Source: a virus (lineage: Duplodnaviria > Heunggongvirae > Uroviricota > Caudoviricetes). Taken from it: 7,842 nucleotides of DNA. A program made the translations under genes and the position numbers. The stretch lies in IMG/VR virus record IMGVR_UViG_2675903654_000004, one strand, 5' to 3'. This document shows, one piece after another, positions 1 to 7,842 of this stretch (its first letter is position 1; the number at the start of each line of letters is the position of its first letter). Below the pieces are notes generated by a model. That model was not told the DNA's origin, ran no database searches, and worked only from the letters and a program-made list of their open reading frames with translations.

Positions 1-2139
1 GGGGATTCCACGCTTTCAGCGTTTAATAAAACCCTGGTTCTTTCCGGTAATCAGTCCGGACTGACTGCCGATCGCATGTTGACGCTCTCCAGAGCCGGAC
101 AGGCCGCAGGGCTGACGTTTAACCAGGCGAGTGAGTCACTGGCAGCCCTGGTGAATGCCGGTGTGCGTGGTGGTGAACAGTTTGATGCCATCAACCAGAG
201 TGTCGCGCGTTTTGCTTCTGCATCCGGTGTGGAGGTGGACAAGGTTGCAGAGGCTTTCGGAAAGCTGACCACCGACCCTACGTCGGGGCTGATTGCGATG
301 GCGCGCCAGTTCCGTAACGTGACGGCAGAGCAGATTGCGTATGTTGCGCAGCTGCAGCGTTCCGGTGATGAGGCCGGGGCCTTACAGGCGGCGAACGATA
401 TCGCCACGAAAGGCTTTGATGAGCAGACCCGCCGCCTGAAAGAGAACATGGGCACGCTGGAGACCTGGGCAGACAGGACTGCACGGGCATTCAAATCCAT
501 GTGGGATGCGGTGCTGGATATTGGTCGTCCTGATACCGCGCAGGAGATGCTGATTAAGGCAGAGGCTGCGTTTAAGAAAGCAGACGACATCTGGAATCTG
601 CGCAAGGATGATTATTTTGTTAACGATGAAGCGCGGGCGCGTTACTGGGATGATCGTGAAAAGGCCCGTCTTGCGCTTGAAGCCGCCCGAAAGAAGGCTG
701 AGCAGCAGACTCAACAGGACAAAAATGCGCAGCAGCAGAGCGATACCGAAGCGTCACGGCTGAAATATACCGAAGAGGCGCAGAAGGCTTACGAACGGCT
801 GCAGACGCCGCTGGAGAAATATACCGCCCGTCAGGAAGAACTGAACAAGGCACTGAAAGACGGGAAAATCCTGCAGGCGGATTACAACACGCTGATGGCG
901 GCGGCGAAAAAGGATTATGAAGCGACGCTGAAAAAGCCGAAACAGTCCAGCGTGAAGGTGTCTGCGGGCGATCGTCAGGAAGACAGTGCTCATGCTGCCC
1001 TGCTGACGCTTCAGGCAGAACTCCGGACGCTGGAGAAGCATGCCGGAGCAAATGAGAAAATCAGCCAGCAGCGCCGGGATTTGTGGAAGGCGGAGAGTCA
1101 GTTCGCGGTACTGGAGGAGGCGGCGCAACGTCGCCAGCTGTCTGCACAGGAGAAATCCCTGCTGGCGCATAAAGATGAGACGCTGGAGTACAAACGCCAG
1201 CTGGCTGCACTTGGCGACAAGGTTACGTATCAGGAGCGCCTGAACGCGCTGGCGCAGCAGGCGGATAAATTCGCACAGCAGCAACGGGCAAAACGGGCCG
1301 CCATTGATGCGAAAAGCCGGGGGCTGACTGACCGGCAGGCAGAACGGGAAGCCACGGAACAGCGCCTGAAGGAACAGTATGGCGATAATCCGCTGGCGCT
1401 GAATAACGTCATGTCAGAGCAGAAAAAGACCTGGGCGGCTGAAGACCAGCTTCGCGGGAACTGGATGGCAGGCCTGAAGTCCGGCTGGAGTGAGTGGGAA
1501 GAGAGCGCCACGGACAGTATGTCGCAGGTAAAAAGTGCAGCCACGCAGACCTTTGATGGTATTGCACAGAATATGGTGGCGATGCTGACCGGCAGTGAGC
1601 AGAACTGGCGCAGCTTCACCCGTTCCGTGCTGTCCATGATGACAGAAATTCTGCTTAAGCAGGCAATGGTGGGGATTGTCGGGAGTATCGGCAGCGCCAT
1701 TGGCGGGGCTGTTGGTGGCGGCGCATCCGCGTCAGGCGGTACAGCCATTCAGGCCGCTGCGGCGAAATTCCATTTTGCAACCGGAGGATTTACGGGAACC
1801 GGCGGCAAATATGAGCCAGCGGGGATTGTTCACCGTGGTGAGTTTGTCTTCACGAAGGAGGCAACCAGCCGGATTGGCGTGGGGAATCTTTACCGGCTGA
1901 TGCGCGGCTATGCCACCGGCGGTTATGTCGGTACACCGGGCAGCATGGCAGACAGCCGGTCGCAGGCGTCCGGGACGTTTGAGCAGAATAACCATGTGGT
2001 GATTAACAACGACGGCACGAACGGGCAGATAGGTCCGGCTGCTCTGAAGGCGGTGTATGACATGGCCCGCAAGGGTGCCCGTGATGAAATTCAGACACAG
2101 ATGCGTGATGGTGGCCTGTTCTCCGGAGGTGGACGATGA
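1..2139 (+). CDS. H: Tail tape measure protein (lambda gpH-like), 5'-truncated by window edge; 712 codons present
   Basis: Frame 1 is open from base 1 (no stop before the first Met at 76 reported by the ORF track) to TGA at 2137-2139. Long Ala/Glu/Lys/Gln/Arg-rich predicted coiled-coil middle, Gly-rich hydrophobic C-terminal segment (MVGIVGSIGSAIGGAVGGGASASGG) and ...RDGGLFSGGGR terminus that I recognise as lambda gpH. Sits immediately upstream of M-L-K-I-J. Confidence 0.95.
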   Translation, partial: GDSTLSAFNKTLVLSGNQSGLTADRMLTLSRAGQAAGLTFNQASESLAALVNAGVRGGEQFDAINQSVARFASASGVEVDKVAEAFGKLTTDPTSGLIAMARQFRNVTAEQIAYVAQLQRSGDEAGALQAANDIATKGFDEQTRRLKENMGTLETWADRTARAFKSMWDAVLDIGRPDTAQEMLIKAEAAFKKADDIWNLRKDDYFVNDEARARYWDDREKARLALEAARKKAEQQTQQDKNAQQQSDTEASRLKYTEEAQKAYERLQTPLEKYTARQEELNKALKDGKILQADYNTLMAAAKKDYEATLKKPKQSSVKVSAGDRQEDSAHAALLTLQAELRTLEKHAGANEKISQQRRDLWKAESQFAVLEEAAQRRQLSAQEKSLLAHKDETLEYKRQLAALGDKVTYQERLNALAQQADKFAQQQRAKRAAIDAKSRGLTDRQAEREATEQRLKEQYGDNPLALNNVMSEQKKTWAAEDQLRGNWMAGLKSGWSEWEESATDSMSQVKSAATQTFDGIAQNMVAMLTGSEQNWRSFTRSVLSMMTEILLKQAMVGIVGSIGSAIGGAVGGGASASGGTAIQAAAAKFHFATGGFTGTGGKYEPAGIVHRGEFVFTKEATSRIGVGNLYRLMRGYATGGYVGTPGSMADSRSQASGTFEQNNHVVINNDGTNGQIGPAALKAVYDMARKGARDEIQTQMRDGGLFSGGGR
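2125..2129 (+). promoter_or_regulatory. Shine-Dalgarno (GGAGG) for M, 6-nt spacer to ATG 2136
   Basis: GGAGG read directly at 2125-2129 inside the 3' end of H. Confidence 0.6.
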
Positions 2140-2465
2140 AGACCTTCCGCTGGAAAGTGAAACCCGGTATGGATGTGGCTTCGGTCCCTTCTGTAAGAAA
2201 GGTGCGCTTTGGTGATGGCTATTCTCAGCGAGCGCCTGCCGGGCTGAATGCCAACCTGAAAACGTACAGCGTGACGCTTTCTGTCCCCCGTGAGGAGGCC
2301 ACGGTACTGGAGTCGTTTCTGGAAGAGCACGGGGGCTGGAAATCCTTTCTGTGGACGCCGCCTTATGAGTGGCGGCAGATAAAGGTGACCTGCGCAAAAT
2401 GGTCGTCGCGGGTCAGTATGCTGCGTGTTGAGTTCAGCGCAGAGTTTGAACAGGTGGTGAACTGA
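2136..2465 (+). CDS. M: Tail tip assembly / minor tail protein M (lambda gpM-like), 109 aa
   Basis: ATG at 2136 overlaps the H stop (ATGA); ORF ends TGA 2463-2465. Protein MKTFRWKVKPGMDVASVPSVRKVRFGDGYSQRAPAGL... matches lambda gpM as I recall it; correct size and position. Confidence 0.95.
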   Translation: MKTFRWKVKPGMDVASVPSVRKVRFGDGYSQRAPAGLNANLKTYSVTLSVPREEATVLESFLEEHGGWKSFLWTPPYEWRQIKVTCAKWSSRVSMLRVEFSAEFEQVVN

Positions 2466-3163
2466 TGCAGGATATCCGGCAGGAAACACTGAATGAATGC
2501 ACCCGTGCGGAGCAGTCGGCCAGCGTGGTGCTCTGGGAAATCGACCTGACAGAGGTCGGTGGAGAACGTTATTTTTTCTGTAATGAGCAGAACGAAAAAG
2601 GTGAGCCGGTCACCTGGCAGGGGCGACAGTATCAGCCGTATCCCATTCAGGGGAGCGGTTTTGAACTGAATGGCAAAGGCACCAGTACGCGCCCCACGCT
2701 GACGGTTTCTAACCTGTACGGTATGGTCACCGGGATGGCGGAAGATATGCAGAGTCTGGTCGGCGGAACGGTGGTCCGGCGTAAGGTTTACGCCCGTTTT
2801 CTGGATGCGGTGAACTTCGTCAACGGAAACAGTTACGCCGATCCGGAGCAGGAGGTGATCAGCCGCTGGCGCATTGAGCAGTGCAGCGAACTGAGCGCGG
2901 TGAGTGCCTCCTTTGTACTGTCCACGCCGACGGAAACGGATGGCGCTGTTTTTCCGGGACGTATCATGCTGGCCAACACCTGCACCTGGACCTATCGCGG
3001 TGACGAGTGCGGTTATAGCGGTCCGGCTGTCGCGGATGAATATGACCAGCCAACGTCCGATATCACGAAGGATAAATGCAGCAAATGCCTGAGCGGTTGT
3101 AAGTTCCGCAATAACGTCGGCAACTTTGGCGGCTTCCTTTCCATTAACAAACTTTCGCAGTAA
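2465..3163 (+). CDS. L: Tail tip protein L (lambda gpL-like), 232 aa, with C-terminal cysteine cluster
   Basis: ATG at 2465 overlaps the M stop (TGATG); possible SD AGGTGG at 2452-2457; ends TAA 3161-3163. Protein MQDIRQETLNECTRAEQSASVVLWEIDL... with C-terminal cysteines C173, C182, C205, C208, C212, characteristic of gpL-family proteins. Confidence 0.95.
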   Translation: MQDIRQETLNECTRAEQSASVVLWEIDLTEVGGERYFFCNEQNEKGEPVTWQGRQYQPYPIQGSGFELNGKGTSTRPTLTVSNLYGMVTGMAEDMQSLVGGTVVRRKVYARFLDAVNFVNGNSYADPEQEVISRWRIEQCSELSAVSASFVLSTPTETDGAVFPGRIMLANTCTWTYRGDECGYSGPAVADEYDQPTSDITKDKCSKCLSGCKFRNNVGNFGGFLSINKLSQ

Positions 3164-3168
3164 ATCCC

Positions 3169-3912
3169 ATGACACAGACAGAATCAGCGATTCTGGCGCA
3201 CGCCCGGCGATGTGCGCCAGCGGAGTCGTGCGGCTTCGTGGTAAGCACGCCGGAGGGGGAAAGATATTTCCCCTGCGTGAATATCTCCGGTGAGCCGGAG
3301 GCGTATTTCCGTATGTCGCCGGAAGACTGGCTGCAGGCAGAAATGCAGGGGGAGATTGTGGCGCTGGTCCACAGCCACCCCGGTGGTCTGCCCTGGCTGA
3401 GTGAGGCCGACCGGCGGCTGCAGGTGCAGAGTGATTTGCCGTGGTGGCTGGTCTGCCGGGGTGAGATTCATAAGTTCCGCTGTGTGCCGCATCTCACCGG
3501 GCGGCGCTTTGAGCACGGTGTGACGGACTGTTACACACTGTTCCGGGATGCTTATCATCTGGCGGAGATTGAGATGCCGGATTTTGTGCGTGAGGATGAC
3601 TGGTGGCGTAACGGTCAGAATCTCTATCTGGATAATCTGGAGGCCACAGGGCTGTATCAGGTGCCGTTGTCAGCGGCGCAGCCGGGCGATGTGCTGCTGT
3701 GCTGTTTTGGTTCATCGGTGCCGAATCACGCCGCTATTTACTGTGGTGACGGCGAGCTGCTGCACCATATTCCTGAACAACTGAGTAAACGGGAGAGGTA
3801 TACCGACAAATGGCAGCGACGCACACACTCCCTCTGGCGTCACCGGGAATGGCACGCATCTGCCTTTACGGGGATTTGCAACGATTTGGCCGCCGCATCG
3901 ACCTTCGTGTGA
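3169..3912 (+). CDS. K: Tail tip assembly protein K (lambda gpK-like): N-terminal JAB/MPN (JAMM) metalloprotease domain plus C-terminal NlpC/P60-like cysteine peptidase domain. Maximal ORF 247 aa; the classical lambda K start corresponds to the internal Met49 at 3313 (199 aa)
   Basis: ORF from ATG 3169 (5 nt after the L stop) to TGA 3910-3912. JAMM motif H68-S-H70-x7-S78-x2-D81 (HSHPGGLPWLSEAD) with upstream E19-S-C-G-F-V-V (E-x-x-G-hydrophobic). NlpC/P60-like Cys in TDCYT (C121) and His in NHAAIY (H187) and LLHH (H199/H200). The start is uncertain: no SD precedes 3169, whereas GGAGG at 3297-3301 precedes ATG 3313. Confidence 0.85.
   Translation: MTQTESAILAHARRCAPAESCGFVVSTPEGERYFPCVNISGEPEAYFRMSPEDWLQAEMQGEIVALVHSHPGGLPWLSEADRRLQVQSDLPWWLVCRGEIHKFRCVPHLTGRRFEHGVTDCYTLFRDAYHLAEIEMPDFVREDDWWRNGQNLYLDNLEATGLYQVPLSAAQPGDVLLCCFGSSVPNHAAIYCGDGELLHHIPEQLSKRERYTDKWQRRTHSLWRHREWHASAFTGICNDLAAASTFV
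3791..3798 (+). promoter_or_regulatory. Shine-Dalgarno (GGGAGAGG) for I, 11-nt spacer to ATG 3810
   Basis: Purine-rich GGGAGAGG read directly at 3791-3798, inside the K coding sequence. Confidence 0.55.
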
Positions 3913-4481
3913 AAACGGGGGCTGAAGCCATCCGCGCACTGGCCACACAGCTCCCGGCGTTTCGTCAGAAACTGAGCGACGGCTGGTATCAGGTACGGAT
4001 TGCCGGGCGGGACGTCAGCGCGTCCGGGTTAACGGCGCAGTTACATGAGACTCTGCCTGATGGCGCTGTGATTCATATTGTTCCCAGAGTCGCCGGGGCC
4101 AAGTCAGGTGGCGTATTCCAGATTGTCCTGGGGGCTGCCGCCATTGCCGGATCATTCTTTACCGCCGGAGCCACCCTTGCAGCATGGGGGGCAGCCATTG
4201 GGGCCGGTGGTATGACCGGCATCCTGTTTTCTCTCGGTGCCAGTATGGTGCTCGGTGGTGTGGCGCAGATGCTGGCACCGAAAGCCAGAACTCCCCGTAC
4301 ACAGACAACGGATAACGGTAAGCAGAACACCTATTTCTCCTCACTGGATAACATGGTTGCCCAGGGCAATGTTCTGCCTGTTCTGTACGGGGAAATGCGC
4401 GTGGGGTCTCGCGTGGTTTCTCAGGAGATCAGCACGGCAGACGAAGGGGACGGTGGTCAGGTTGTGGTGATTGGTCGCTGA
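3810..4481 (+). CDS. I: Tail tip assembly protein I (lambda gpI-like), 223 aa: N-terminal ubiquitin-like (beta-grasp) domain ending in Gly-Gly, then a Gly/Ala-rich hydrophobic segment
   Basis: ATG 3810 to TGA 4479-4481. Overlaps the K 3' end by 103 nt in a different frame. Protein MAATHTLPLASPGMARICLYGDLQRFGRRIDLRVKTG... matches lambda gpI as I recall it. ...VPRVAGAKSGG (G100-G101) is followed by VFQIVLGAAAIAGSFFTAGATLAAWGAAIGAGGMTGILFSLGASMVLGG. Confidence 0.92.
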   Translation: MAATHTLPLASPGMARICLYGDLQRFGRRIDLRVKTGAEAIRALATQLPAFRQKLSDGWYQVRIAGRDVSASGLTAQLHETLPDGAVIHIVPRVAGAKSGGVFQIVLGAAAIAGSFFTAGATLAAWGAAIGAGGMTGILFSLGASMVLGGVAQMLAPKARTPRTQTTDNGKQNTYFSSLDNMVAQGNVLPVLYGEMRVGSRVVSQEISTADEGDGGQVVVIGR

Positions 4482-4499
4482 TGCAAAATGTTTTATGTG

Positions 4500-4530
4500 A
4501 AACCGCCTGCGGGCGGTTTTGTCGTTTATG
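4500..4530 (+). terminator. Hairpin with U-rich tail in the I-J intergenic gap; possible weak intrinsic terminator, attenuator or RNA-stabilising structure
   Basis: Perfect inverted repeat AAACCGCC (4500-4507) / GGCGGTTT (4512-4519) around a TGCG loop, followed by TGTCGTTT. Read directly from the sequence; function not demonstrated. Confidence 0.35.
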
Positions 4531-4533
4531 GAG
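4530..4533 (+). promoter_or_regulatory. Shine-Dalgarno (GGAG) for J, 8-nt spacer to ATG 4542
   Basis: GGAG at 4530-4533; a second GAGG at 4537-4540 is too close to the ATG to serve. Confidence 0.55.
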
Positions 4534-4541
4534 CGTGAGGA

Positions 4542-7500
4542 ATGGGTAAAGGCAGCAGTAAGGGGCATACCCCGCGCGAAGCGAAGGACAACCTGAAGTC
4601 CACGCAGCTGCTGAGTGTGATCGATGCCATCAGTGAAGGGCCGGTTGAAGGTCCGGTGGATGGATTAAAAAGCGTGCTGCTGAACAGTACGCCGGTGCTG
4701 GACAGTGAGGGGAATACCAACATCTCCGGCGTCACGGTGGTGTTCCGGGCAGGTGAGCAGGAGCAGACACCGCCGGAAGGTTTTGAATCCTCCGGCTCCG
4801 AGACGGTGCTGGGTACGGAAGTGAAATATGACACGCCGATCACCCGCACCATCACGTCGGCAAACATCGACCGTCTGCGCTTTACCTTCGGTGTGCAGGC
4901 ACTGGTGGAAACCACCTCAAAGGGGGACCGGAATCCGTCGGAAGTCCGCCTGCTGGTTCAGATACAGCGTAACGGTGGCTGGGTGACGGAAAAAGACATC
5001 ACCATTAAGGGCAAAACCACCTCGCAGTATCTGGCCTCGGTGGTGGATAACCTGCCGCCGCGCCCGTTTAATATCCGGATGCGCAGGATGACGCCGGACA
5101 GCACCACAGACCAGCTGCAGAACAAAACGCTCTGGTCGTCATACACCGAAATCATCGATGTGAAACAGTGCTACCCGAACACGGCACTGGTCGGCGTACA
5201 GGTGGACTCGGAGCAGTTCGGCAGCCAGCAGGTGAGTCGTAATTATCATCTTCGCGGGCGCATTCTGCAGGTGCCGTCGAACTATAACCCGCAGACGCGA
5301 CAATACAGCGGTATCTGGGACGGAACGTTAAAACCGGCATACAGCAACAACATGGCCTGGTGTCTGTGGGATATGCTGACCCACCCGCGCTACGGCATGG
5401 GGAAACGTCTTGGTGCGGCGGATGTGGACAAATGGGCGCTGTATGTCATCGGCCAGTACTGCGACCAGTCAGTGCCGGACGGCTCTGGCGGCACGGAGCC
5501 GCGCATCACCTGTAATGCGTACCTGACCACACAGCGCAAGGCGTGGGATGTGCTCAGTGATTTCTGCTCGGCGATGCGCTGTATGCCGGTATGGAACGGG
5601 CAGACGCTGACGTTCGTGCAGGACCGACCGTCGGATAAGGTGTGGACCTATAACCGCAGTAATGTGGTGATGCCGGATGATGGCGCGCCGTTCCGCTACA
5701 GCTTCAGCGCCCTGAAGGACCGCCATAATGCCGTTGAGGTGAACTGGATTGACCCGAACAACGGCTGGGAGACGGCGACAGAGCTTGTGGAGGATACGCA
5801 GGCCATTGCCCGTTACGGTCGTAACGTCACGAAGATGGATGCTTTTGGCTGTACCAGCCGGGGGCAGGCACACCGCGCCGGGCTGTGGCTGATTAAAACA
5901 GAACTGCTGGAAACGCAGACCGTGGACTTCAGCGTGGGCGCAGAAGGGCTTCGCCATGTGCCGGGCGATGTCATTGAAATCTGTGATGATGACTATGCCG
6001 GTATCAGCATCGGCGGGCGCGTGCTGGCGGTAAACAGCCAGACCCGGACGCTGACGCTCGACCGTGAAATCACGCTGCCATCCTCCGGTACCACGCTGAT
6101 AAGCCTGGTTGACGGGCAGGGTAATCCGGTGAGCGTGGAGGTCCAGTCCGTCACCGACGGCGTGAAGGTTAAAGTGAGCCGTGTTCCTGACGGCGTTGCC
6201 GGATACAGCGTGTGGGGGCTGAAGCTGCCGACGCTGCGCCAGCGCCTGTTCCGCTGCGTGAGTATCCGTGAGAACGATGACGGCACGTATGCCATCACCG
6301 CCGTGCAGCATGTACCGGAAAAAGAGGCCATCGTGGATAACGGGGCGCACTTTGACGGCGACCAGAGCGGCACGGTGAATGGTGTCACGCCGCCAGCGGT
6401 GCAGCACCTGACTGCCGAAGTCACCGCAGACAGCGGGGAATATCAGGTACTGGCGCGATGGGACACGCCGAAGGTGGTGAAGGGTGTGAGCTTCCTGCTT
6501 CGCCTGATCGTGGCAGCGGATGACGGCAGTGAGCGGCTGGTCAGCACAGCCCAGACGACGGAAACCACATACCGCTTCAGGCAGCTGGCGCTGGGGAACT
6601 ACAGGCTGACGGTCCGGGCGATAAATGCCCGGGGGCAGCAGGGCGAGCCGGCGTCGGTATCGTTCCGGATTGCCGCACCGGTAGCACCGTCGCGGATTGA
6701 GCTGACACCGGGCTATTTTCAGATAACAGCGGTCCCGCGTCTTGCGGTGTATGACCCGACGGTACAGTTTGAGTTCTGGTTTTCGGAGACAAAAATCGCA
6801 GACATATCTCAGGTGGAAACCTCTGCCCGTTATCTGGGGACCGGCAGTCAGTGGAGTGTATCCGGCCCGCACATTAAGCCCGGGAAGGATTTCTGGTTTT
6901 ACGTGCGCAGCGTCAACCTGGTGGGGAAATCTGCGTTTGTGGAAATCAGCGGGCAGCCCAGCAATGATGGTGAAGGGTATCTGGAATTTTTCCGGGAAAA
7001 AATAGGAAAACTGCATCTGGCTCAGGGGCTGTGGGAGCTGATAGACAACAGCCAGCTTGCGGATGAGATGGCGGAGATGAAGACCACCATCACCGAAACC
7101 CGCAATGAAATCACACAGACGGTCAGTAAAACGCTGGAGGACCAGAGCGCCACCATACAGCAGATACAGCGCGTGCAGAAGGACACAAATGATGACCTTG
7201 CTGCACTTTACATGCTGAAGGTACAGAAAACAAAAAATGGCATACCCTATGTTGCCGGTATTGGAGCGGGGATTGAGGATACTGATGGCCAGCCCCTGAG
7301 CAACATACTGCTGCTGGCTGACCGTATTGCGATGATTAACCCGGAGGACGGCAACACCACGCCGTTATTTGTGGCGCAGGGGAATCAGTTGTTCATGAAC
7401 GATGTGTTCCTGAAGCGGCTGTTTGCGGTGAGTATCACCTCGTCCGGCAATCCCCCGACGTTTTCCCTGACGCCGGAGGGCAGGCTGACCGCAAGAAATG

Positions 7501-7842
7501 CTGATATCAGCGGTAACGTGAATGCGAATTCCGGGACGCTCAACAACGTCACGATTAACGAGAACTGTCGGGTTCTGGGAAAACTGTCCGCGAACCAGAT
7601 TGAAGGCGATCTCGTTAAAACAGTGGGCAAAGCTTTCCCCCGGGATTCCCGTGCACCGGAGCGGTGGCCATCAGGGACCATTACCGTCAGGGTTTATGAC
7701 GATCAGCCGTTTGACCGGCAAATTGTTATTCCGGCGGTGGCATTCAGCGGCGCTAAACATGAGAGAGAGCATACTGATATTTACTCCTCATGCCGTCTGA
7801 TAGTGCGGAAAAACGGTGCTGAAATTTATAACCGTACCGCGC
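4542..7842 (+). CDS. J: Tail tip / central tail fibre host-specificity protein J (lambda gpJ-like), 3'-truncated by window edge; 1100 codons present
   Basis: ATG at 4542-4544. I translated the frame codon by codon to the window end and found no in-frame stop; phase was checked at 5100, 7020 and 7800. N-terminus [41 protein letters not shown]... matches lambda gpJ as I recall it. Absent from the supplied ORF track, apparently because it has no stop inside the window. Confidence 0.95.

Follow-up and report, generated by a model that had tools for sequence, protein, structure and literature searches.

Has a phage with a lambda-type tail exchanged the distal part of its tip attachment gene J and, with it, its outer-membrane receptor? 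This question is raised by the J gene in the Caudoviricetes record IMGVR_UViG_2675903654_000004, which we analysed as one stretch of 7,842 nucleotides (nt; the whole stretch is called the window, and all coordinates are positions in it). It has been known since the lambda/434 hybrids that lambdoid phages exchange the C-terminal part of J among themselves, and the original prediction for this window held that J is mosaic from position 6780 on, that a local drop in GC content marks the mosaic segment, and that the tail has a receptor specificity different from that of lambda. We found J to be mosaic, a point on which we are close to certain. Taking the claims on its origin and on its receptor together, we consider it very likely that J is a natural recombinant, in which 718 lambda-type codons are followed by a distal cassette of the type found in enterohaemorrhagic and enteropathogenic Escherichia coli (EHEC/EPEC), and whose receptor-binding domain (RBD) would use OmpC and not LamB.

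J starts at position 4542 and remains open up to the final base of the window, giving an unbroken reading frame of 1100 codons. Three features identify its product as a lambda-type tip attachment protein, namely its series of Pfam domains, its position after H-M-L-K-I and its homology to the solved lambda gpJ. Six Pfam domains scored above the curated cut-offs, these being Phage-tail_3, FNIII-A_GpJ, Ig_J (amino acids (aa) 609-713), Ig_J_second (aa 715-817), Phage_Tail_Tip (aa 872-999) and Ig_GpJ_C (from aa 1028, cut by the window end), and phmmer matched J to chain J of the lambda gpJ structure 8IYK (E = 8.9e-145) in two stretches lying on either side of a 28-residue insertion. Lambda gpJ (P03749; PDB 8IYK, 8XCG-8XCK), which binds LamB, has the same series of hub, FNIII-1, FNIII-2, alpha-helical shaft (AHS), central straight fibre (CSF) and RBD; we took these domain names from its cryo-electron microscopy account (PMC11101478), and they agree with the Pfam matches. 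From J codon 719 on, however, lambda carries a different allele. At the protein level the hub is 98% identical to that of lambda, FNIII-1 93%, and the 36-residue linker and joint behind it 92%, in keeping with the predicted closeness of the N-terminal and central parts to lambda gpJ. Beyond this point, identity falls to 63% in the rest of FNIII-2, to 17% in the shaft, where 28 residues have no lambda counterpart, and to 68% in the CSF, with a nucleotide identity of 75.6% over 7323-7568. The part of the RBD that lies in the window is ~50% identical to lambda, and the whole domain, as read from a relative that is identical up to the window end, 44%.

Within the hub, at 5043-5051 (aa 168-170), J has a one-codon deletion together with a substitution, reading VVDNL where lambda reads VVMGNL and the prophage relative UTME-12 (see below) reads VVVGNL. 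In the shaft, a single-sequence AlphaFold2 model placed a long helix, at low confidence, at aa 839-891, spanning the insertion. The AlphaFold2 model of aa 714-1100, with a mean pLDDT of 39, was unusable for fold comparison, and scoring the shaft for heptads by a simple scheme yielded no clear register, so that we do not claim the 28 residues as four clean heptads.

The change from lambda to another lineage is abrupt. In BLAST searches with successive tiles, identity to lambda stayed at 90-100% up to ~6650 and was undetectable from ~6800. In a three-way alignment we then counted the sites in 6300-6992 that separate lambda from JLK-2012, a prophage of E. coli O55:H7. Left of nt 6694, 106 sites were lambda-type and 11 JLK-2012-type, and right of nt 6707 none was lambda-type and 88 were JLK-2012-type (Fisher p = 3e-46 for the left/right contrast). 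The crossover interval is the 13 nt between the last lambda-type site, at 6694, and the first JLK-type site, at 6707; it covers codons 718-722 (RIELT) and falls at the FNIII-1/FNIII-2 boundary, which is also the boundary between Pfam Ig_J and Ig_J_second. The joint in which it lies is an island of 85% DNA identity between the J genes of lambda and JLK-2012, with flanks of 52-68%, and positions 6697-6790 are conserved among J alleles. Because of this conserved block, the protein becomes visibly different first at 6780-6790 and not at 6694-6707. The predicted mosaic is real, and the peptides quoted for it are present (FWFSE at J aa 745, nt 6774; GEGYLEFF... at aa 810; PERWPSG... at aa 1039), but its start had been placed ~80 nt too far downstream. 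A homologous crossover inside this ~95-nt conserved block would have joined lambda-type codons 1-718 to a distal cassette made up of FNIII-2, a shaft longer by 28 residues, the CSF and the RBD.

Had the distal part merely evolved more rapidly away from a lambda-like ancestor, through diversifying selection for host range and with no recombination, this would be in line with the fast evolution of receptor-binding regions and with a divergence that is graded by domain (63%, 17%, 68% and 50%). Such a course, however, does not account for a step within 13 nt that leaves 0/88 lambda-type sites to its right, for distal DNA that is identical or 99.7% identical to genes with proximal parts of only 50-80% identity to the window, as in JLK-2012, or for the occurrence of the same modules in other combinations elsewhere, and we hold it to be extremely improbable. 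The alignment with lambda J, set beforehand as a check on the prediction, gave a distal J that is not essentially identical to lambda and that departs from it stepwise, excluding gradual divergence.

The distal cassette has its closest relatives outside lambda. Positions 6780-7842 are 99.7% identical to J of JLK-2012 (3 mismatches) and 98-99% identical in DNA to several long-tailed Stx1a-/Stx2a-converting phages; examples are Stx1a_10012, Stx2a_1447 and Stx2a_WGPS2. Over all these relatives, UTME-12 and JLK-2012 included, the DNA identity to the window in the distal 1.1-1.2 kb is 98-100%. The proximal J of JLK-2012, in contrast, is only ~20-87% identical to the window in tiles, and its J has a nonsense codon (GAG to TAG) at the window-equivalent position 7344 and is for this reason annotated as two coding sequences, whereas the window keeps GAG and stays open. 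The whole arrangement recurs in the gpJ of UTME-12 (WP_347942153.1; 1159 aa, from a complete E. coli genome), which has zero mismatches to the window over 6648-7842 and, like it, a lambda-like proximal J. Its identity over the full window is 96.8%, with differences of ~3-4% upstream of 6648. Four further complete genomes are 96.6% identical across the junction; complete genomes, too, thus combine a proximal J of the lambda kind with this distal module.

Of 5,426 complete E. coli genomes, 560 carry the distal module (6800-7842) with an identity of at least 95%, and 29 carry it at 99% or above. Downstream of J, OkiPb01717 (a further prophage relative), UTME-12 and JLK-2012 have lom and a split side-tail-fibre gene, followed by genes for type III secretion effectors (NleG-family in OkiPb01717, DUF1076 in UTME-12 and JLK-2012, and NleA and EspV in JLK-2012), and so the distal J cassette travels in effector-carrying EHEC/EPEC lambdoid prophages. 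More generally, it circulates in the lambdoid prophages of EHEC/EPEC and other E. coli, as represented by JLK-2012, the long-tailed Stx1a/Stx2a phages and UTME-12.

We also asked what the GC content says about the origin of the cassette. The GC of J is 0.604 in codons 1-718 and 0.529 thereafter, which is lower than the minimum of equal-size windows in 1-6696 (0.558), and the GC samples given with the prediction were exact (53.3% at 7141-7200, 41.7% at 7201-7260 and 68.3% at 6001-6060). Taken by itself, this drop at the junction could suggest a recent import from a lower-GC donor outside the lambdoid pool. The J gene of lambda, however, falls from 0.592 to 0.534 at the same codons, the J genes of JLK-2012 and UTME-12 do likewise, and the module is common in E. 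coli. Moreover, GC at third codon positions (GC3) and at first and second positions (GC12) both drop in distal J, so that part of the drop reflects amino-acid composition. The gene-wide minimum lies in the shaft region, at 6993..7220. An import from outside the lambdoid pool is in our judgement scarcely credible; the GC drop, correctly noticed, is a standing property of distal J in the whole family and does not mark this mosaic event.

Which receptor would a tip carrying this cassette recognize? Brödel et al. (Nature 2024, PMC11338833) fused natural E. coli gpJ C-termini to lambda gpJ at residue 964, yielding the chimeras A8 and 1A2, both of which use OmpC as receptor in place of LamB, A8 working on K-12 OmpC and 1A2 on EDL933-type OmpC and not on that of MG1655 (K-12) (PMC11338833; bioRxiv 10.1101/2025.02.28.640725). 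The 1A2 gene sequence was available as machine-read text of a PDF supplement with dropped letters, and we matched it to the window in all three frames. Of the 116 window residues that follow the fusion point, 106 were recovered, the other 10 being sites damaged by optical character recognition (OCR) or including 1-3 real substitutions, and 159 of 174 residues were recovered against the full C-terminus of UTME-12, the rest being damaged positions or a few substitutions. UTME-12 and OkiPb01717, which from the equivalent of lambda aa 964 on are 100% identical in protein to the window RBD up to its last residue, J aa 1100, continue with a 1A2-like end. The RBD of the window is accordingly classed by sequence as 1A2 type. 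Close identity to the LamB-binding RBD of lambda (gpJ residues ~985-1132) is lacking (50-51% in the part present). A structure search returned lambda gpJ and 'A8 gpJ 713' (PDB 9WCA), and the A8 RBD is closer to that of the window than the lambda RBD is.

The natural C-terminal piece of 1A2 (PMC11338833; used in the anti-STEC, that is, anti-Shiga-toxigenic E. coli, vector EB003) thus matches the window RBD, and the two proteins differ in the remainder. 1A2 was engineered by fusion at lambda aa 964, has recoded DNA and keeps the FNIII-2, short shaft and fibre of lambda, whereas the window J is fused at aa 719 and has natural codons and a long shaft. A second line of support comes from phage vB_EcoS_phi330 (phi330; PV189401), an OmpC-dependent Stx2a siphophage with an FNIII-2/shaft/fibre module as in the window, whose requirement for OmpC was established by Keio knockout and complementation (PMC12502783). 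Its RBD is of the A8 type (gpJ A8; PDB 9WCA), which works on K-12 OmpC, unlike the 1A2 type. From the 1A2-type RBD and the OmpC dependence of phi330 we infer that OmpC, in EDL933-like variants, is probably the receptor of this J, and the predicted change in receptor specificity is borne out to this extent by the match to 1A2 and the distance from the lambda RBD. For the PhiR phages we found no J receptor data, the one paper found concerning the tape measure protein and ManYZ.

A mosaic J might nonetheless recognize LamB, or some other outer-membrane protein, in place of OmpC. The domain belongs to the same fold family as that of lambda (Pfam Ig_GpJ_C), the loops at the extreme end of the RBD lie beyond the window, and the use of OmpC is known for the 1A2 chimera and predicted for this exact protein. 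Nevertheless, a strain deleted for lamB was used to select the 1A2 chimeras, whose delivery was dependent on OmpC variants expressed from plasmids (PMC11338833), the window part of the RBD differs from 1A2 at few positions at most, and it is only ~50% identical to the RBD of lambda. We therefore regard a receptor other than OmpC as unlikely.

Several points weigh against the view of J as a natural recombinant that uses OmpC. On the side of the receptor, the last 58 residues of the RBD lie beyond the window (the prediction had put the missing part at ~30 or more codons; the 1159-aa gpJ of UTME-12 gives ~58, and the full-length J of the window would have 1158 aa), 10 of the 116 positions compared with 1A2 are unverified in the OCR text, and the genes for the side tail fibres, a further influence on host range, lie outside the window. 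Moreover, a few substitutions in J can change receptor use, as in the host-range mutants of lambda. On the side of the junction, its exact sequence is absent from every collection searched: a 60-mer across it occurs neither in the GTDB representative genomes nor in the JGI metagenomes, and a 36-mer across it is likewise absent from the GTDB representative genomes. The 36-mer did match 27 IMG/VR contigs, all of which diverge past 6787-6845 or are only 88-94% identical. Across 6450-6950, complete E. coli genomes reach at best 96.6% identity and phage records 93.6%.

This absence of the exact junction would also be expected if a short-read assembler had joined the J genes of two co-resident lambdoid prophages across a conserved block. 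This tail region occurs in E. coli genomes in a median of 3 copies and in as many as 15, and the junction does sit in a block conserved between J alleles. Against such a chimera stand the same architecture in complete genomes (UTME-12 and the four that are 96.6% identical across the junction), the reading frame, which is intact throughout, and the extent of exact identity between the lambda and JLK types at the switch, which at ~12 nt is too short to cause a k-mer collapse, except if the true parents resembled each other more closely. An assembly artefact is thus very unlikely, and a natural recombinant remains our favoured account of this J.

Comparison with OkiPb01717 and phi330 further indicated that the cassette is itself modular. 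Over most of 1-5900, OkiPb01717 matches the window at 99-100% identity, and from there to ~6650 at ~88-98%; from 6700 to ~7450 its protein identity drops to 67%, with a shaft that is also long, and from ~7500 its J returns to 98-99% DNA identity, the tiles jumping from 45-75% to 91-99% at ~7450-7550. The opposite combination is seen in phi330, in which the FNIII-2/shaft/fibre part is 96% identical in protein to the window and the A8-type RBD 59%. The J of phi330 is a mosaic in its own right, being JLK-like to ~6459, lambda-like (93-98%) at ~6459-6700, JLK-like again from ~6760 to ~7540, and then A8-type in its RBD, and one of its parent switches coincides with the same FNIII-1/FNIII-2 joint. 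On these comparisons the cassette consists of at least two exchangeable parts, a fibre part from 6700 to ~7500 and an RBD from ~7500 to the end.

Many IMG/VR J alleles that share the joint lose their alignment to the window at 6787-6790. Together with the identity island at the joint and with the modules recombined in OkiPb01717 and phi330, this leads us to conclude that this joint and a second conserved stretch in the straight fibre, where the engineered fusion point of 1A2 and A8 also lies, behave as recurrent crossover sites. One could go further and propose that the ~95-nt joint and the straight-fibre stretch are maintained as dedicated joints for host-range exchange, with the long shaft co-selected with OmpC-type RBDs and tuning reach or triggering. 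We consider this a doubtful proposal, with little chance of being right: the long shaft is present in all three OmpC-type J proteins examined, but both OmpC domains also function in the engineered chimeras, on the short shaft of lambda, and this speaks against a long shaft being strictly needed for OmpC use.

How such a tip might work can be outlined from lambda, where the closed tail tip and the central fibre are made of three J chains and a trigger is relayed from RBD to CSF to AHS to FNIII: upon binding of a trimeric porin the RBDs spread their lower ends, the straight fibre twists, the shaft flips and partly refolds, the FNIII strings are released, the hub opens and the DNA exits (PMC11101478). 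The trimeric tip of this phage would bind OmpC (EDL933-like, not K-12) instead of LamB, and the tail would then open through the same RBD-CSF-AHS-FNIII relay, in which, by analogy, the longer shaft presumably works like that of lambda. The hub and FNIII-1 are those of lambda, and the parts that sense the receptor and transmit the signal all come from the other lineage.

Table 1. Segments of gene J and neighbouring tail genes in the window
Feature	Position	Strand	Remarks
J proximal: hub domains and FNIII-1, aa 1-718	4542..6694	+	Lambda type; by protein alignment, Pfam and informative sites
Conserved joint at the FNIII-1/FNIII-2 boundary	6695..6790	+	Holds the crossover, 6694-6707
FNIII-2 (Pfam Ig_J_second), EHEC/EPEC prophage type	6791..6992	+	63% aa identity to lambda; 100% nt identity to JLK-2012 and UTME-12
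Alpha-helical shaft, long variant	6993..7220	+	28 residues more than lambda; 17% identity
Central straight fibre (Pfam Phage_Tail_Tip)	7221..7538	+	68% aa identity to lambda; holds the second conserved exchange joint
Receptor-binding domain, first 101 residues, classed as 1A2 (OmpC) type	7539..7842	+	Pfam Ig_GpJ_C and 1A2 match
H (tape measure gene), 3' two-thirds	1..2139	+	Runs off the 5' end; outside the mosaic J segment
M	2136-2465	+	Open reading frame; lambda type, 95-100% identical to lambda
L	2465-3163	+	Open reading frame; lambda type, 95-100% identical to lambda
K	3169-3912	+	Open reading frame; lambda type, 95-100% identical to lambda
I	3810-4481	+	Open reading frame; lambda type, 95-100% identical to lambda

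The genes upstream of J follow lambda both in their order, H-M-L-K-I-J, and in their sequences (Table 1). Positions 450-6690, which take in the lambda-type codons of J, have a DNA identity to lambda of 95-100%. Window 22-6992 aligns collinearly with lambda 10986-17958 in one blastn match of 95.9% identity, and in 150-nt tiles (an analysis that left out PhiR46_1 and 2G7b) the identity to lambda is 99-100% at ~450-3300 and 91-100% up to ~6600. A second mosaic boundary lies in H, where positions 1-450 are only 65-94% identical to lambda before the identity rises to 99-100% past ~450; the OkiPb01717 prophage, in contrast, matches the window at 99-100% throughout 1-450. At the end of H and in M (2100-2400), the window is 100% identical to lambda and OkiPb01717 falls to 85-93%, a patch that reads as a small exchange in the direction opposite to that of the boundary in 1-450. 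Positions 3450-3800 and 4500-4800 are ~95% identical to lambda inside surroundings of 97-100%, and OkiPb01717 is 100% identical to the window at 3450-3800 and 4650-4800 and ~96% at 4500-4650; these patches may be further small recombination tracts.

An Rfam search of the window gave no matches, and a scan of 6500-7842 gave no promoter-like sites and terminator-like sites at background level only. Two further open reading frames within J, at 7385-7681 on the minus strand and, in an alternative frame, at 7522-7800 on the plus strand, have low-complexity translations and look like chance frames.

To conclude, the finding is of an already known, ordinary kind of lambdoid mosaicism, with a cassette found in ~10% of complete E. 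coli genomes; it opens no new question, and the 1A2-type binding domain has already been exploited experimentally. What it shows is how a lambda-type tail gains a new host range through one crossover at a domain boundary. In addition, the receptor (EDL933-type OmpC) can be predicted from sequence alone, which helps prophage annotation, and the natural fusion points are of use in engineering lambda-based delivery particles.

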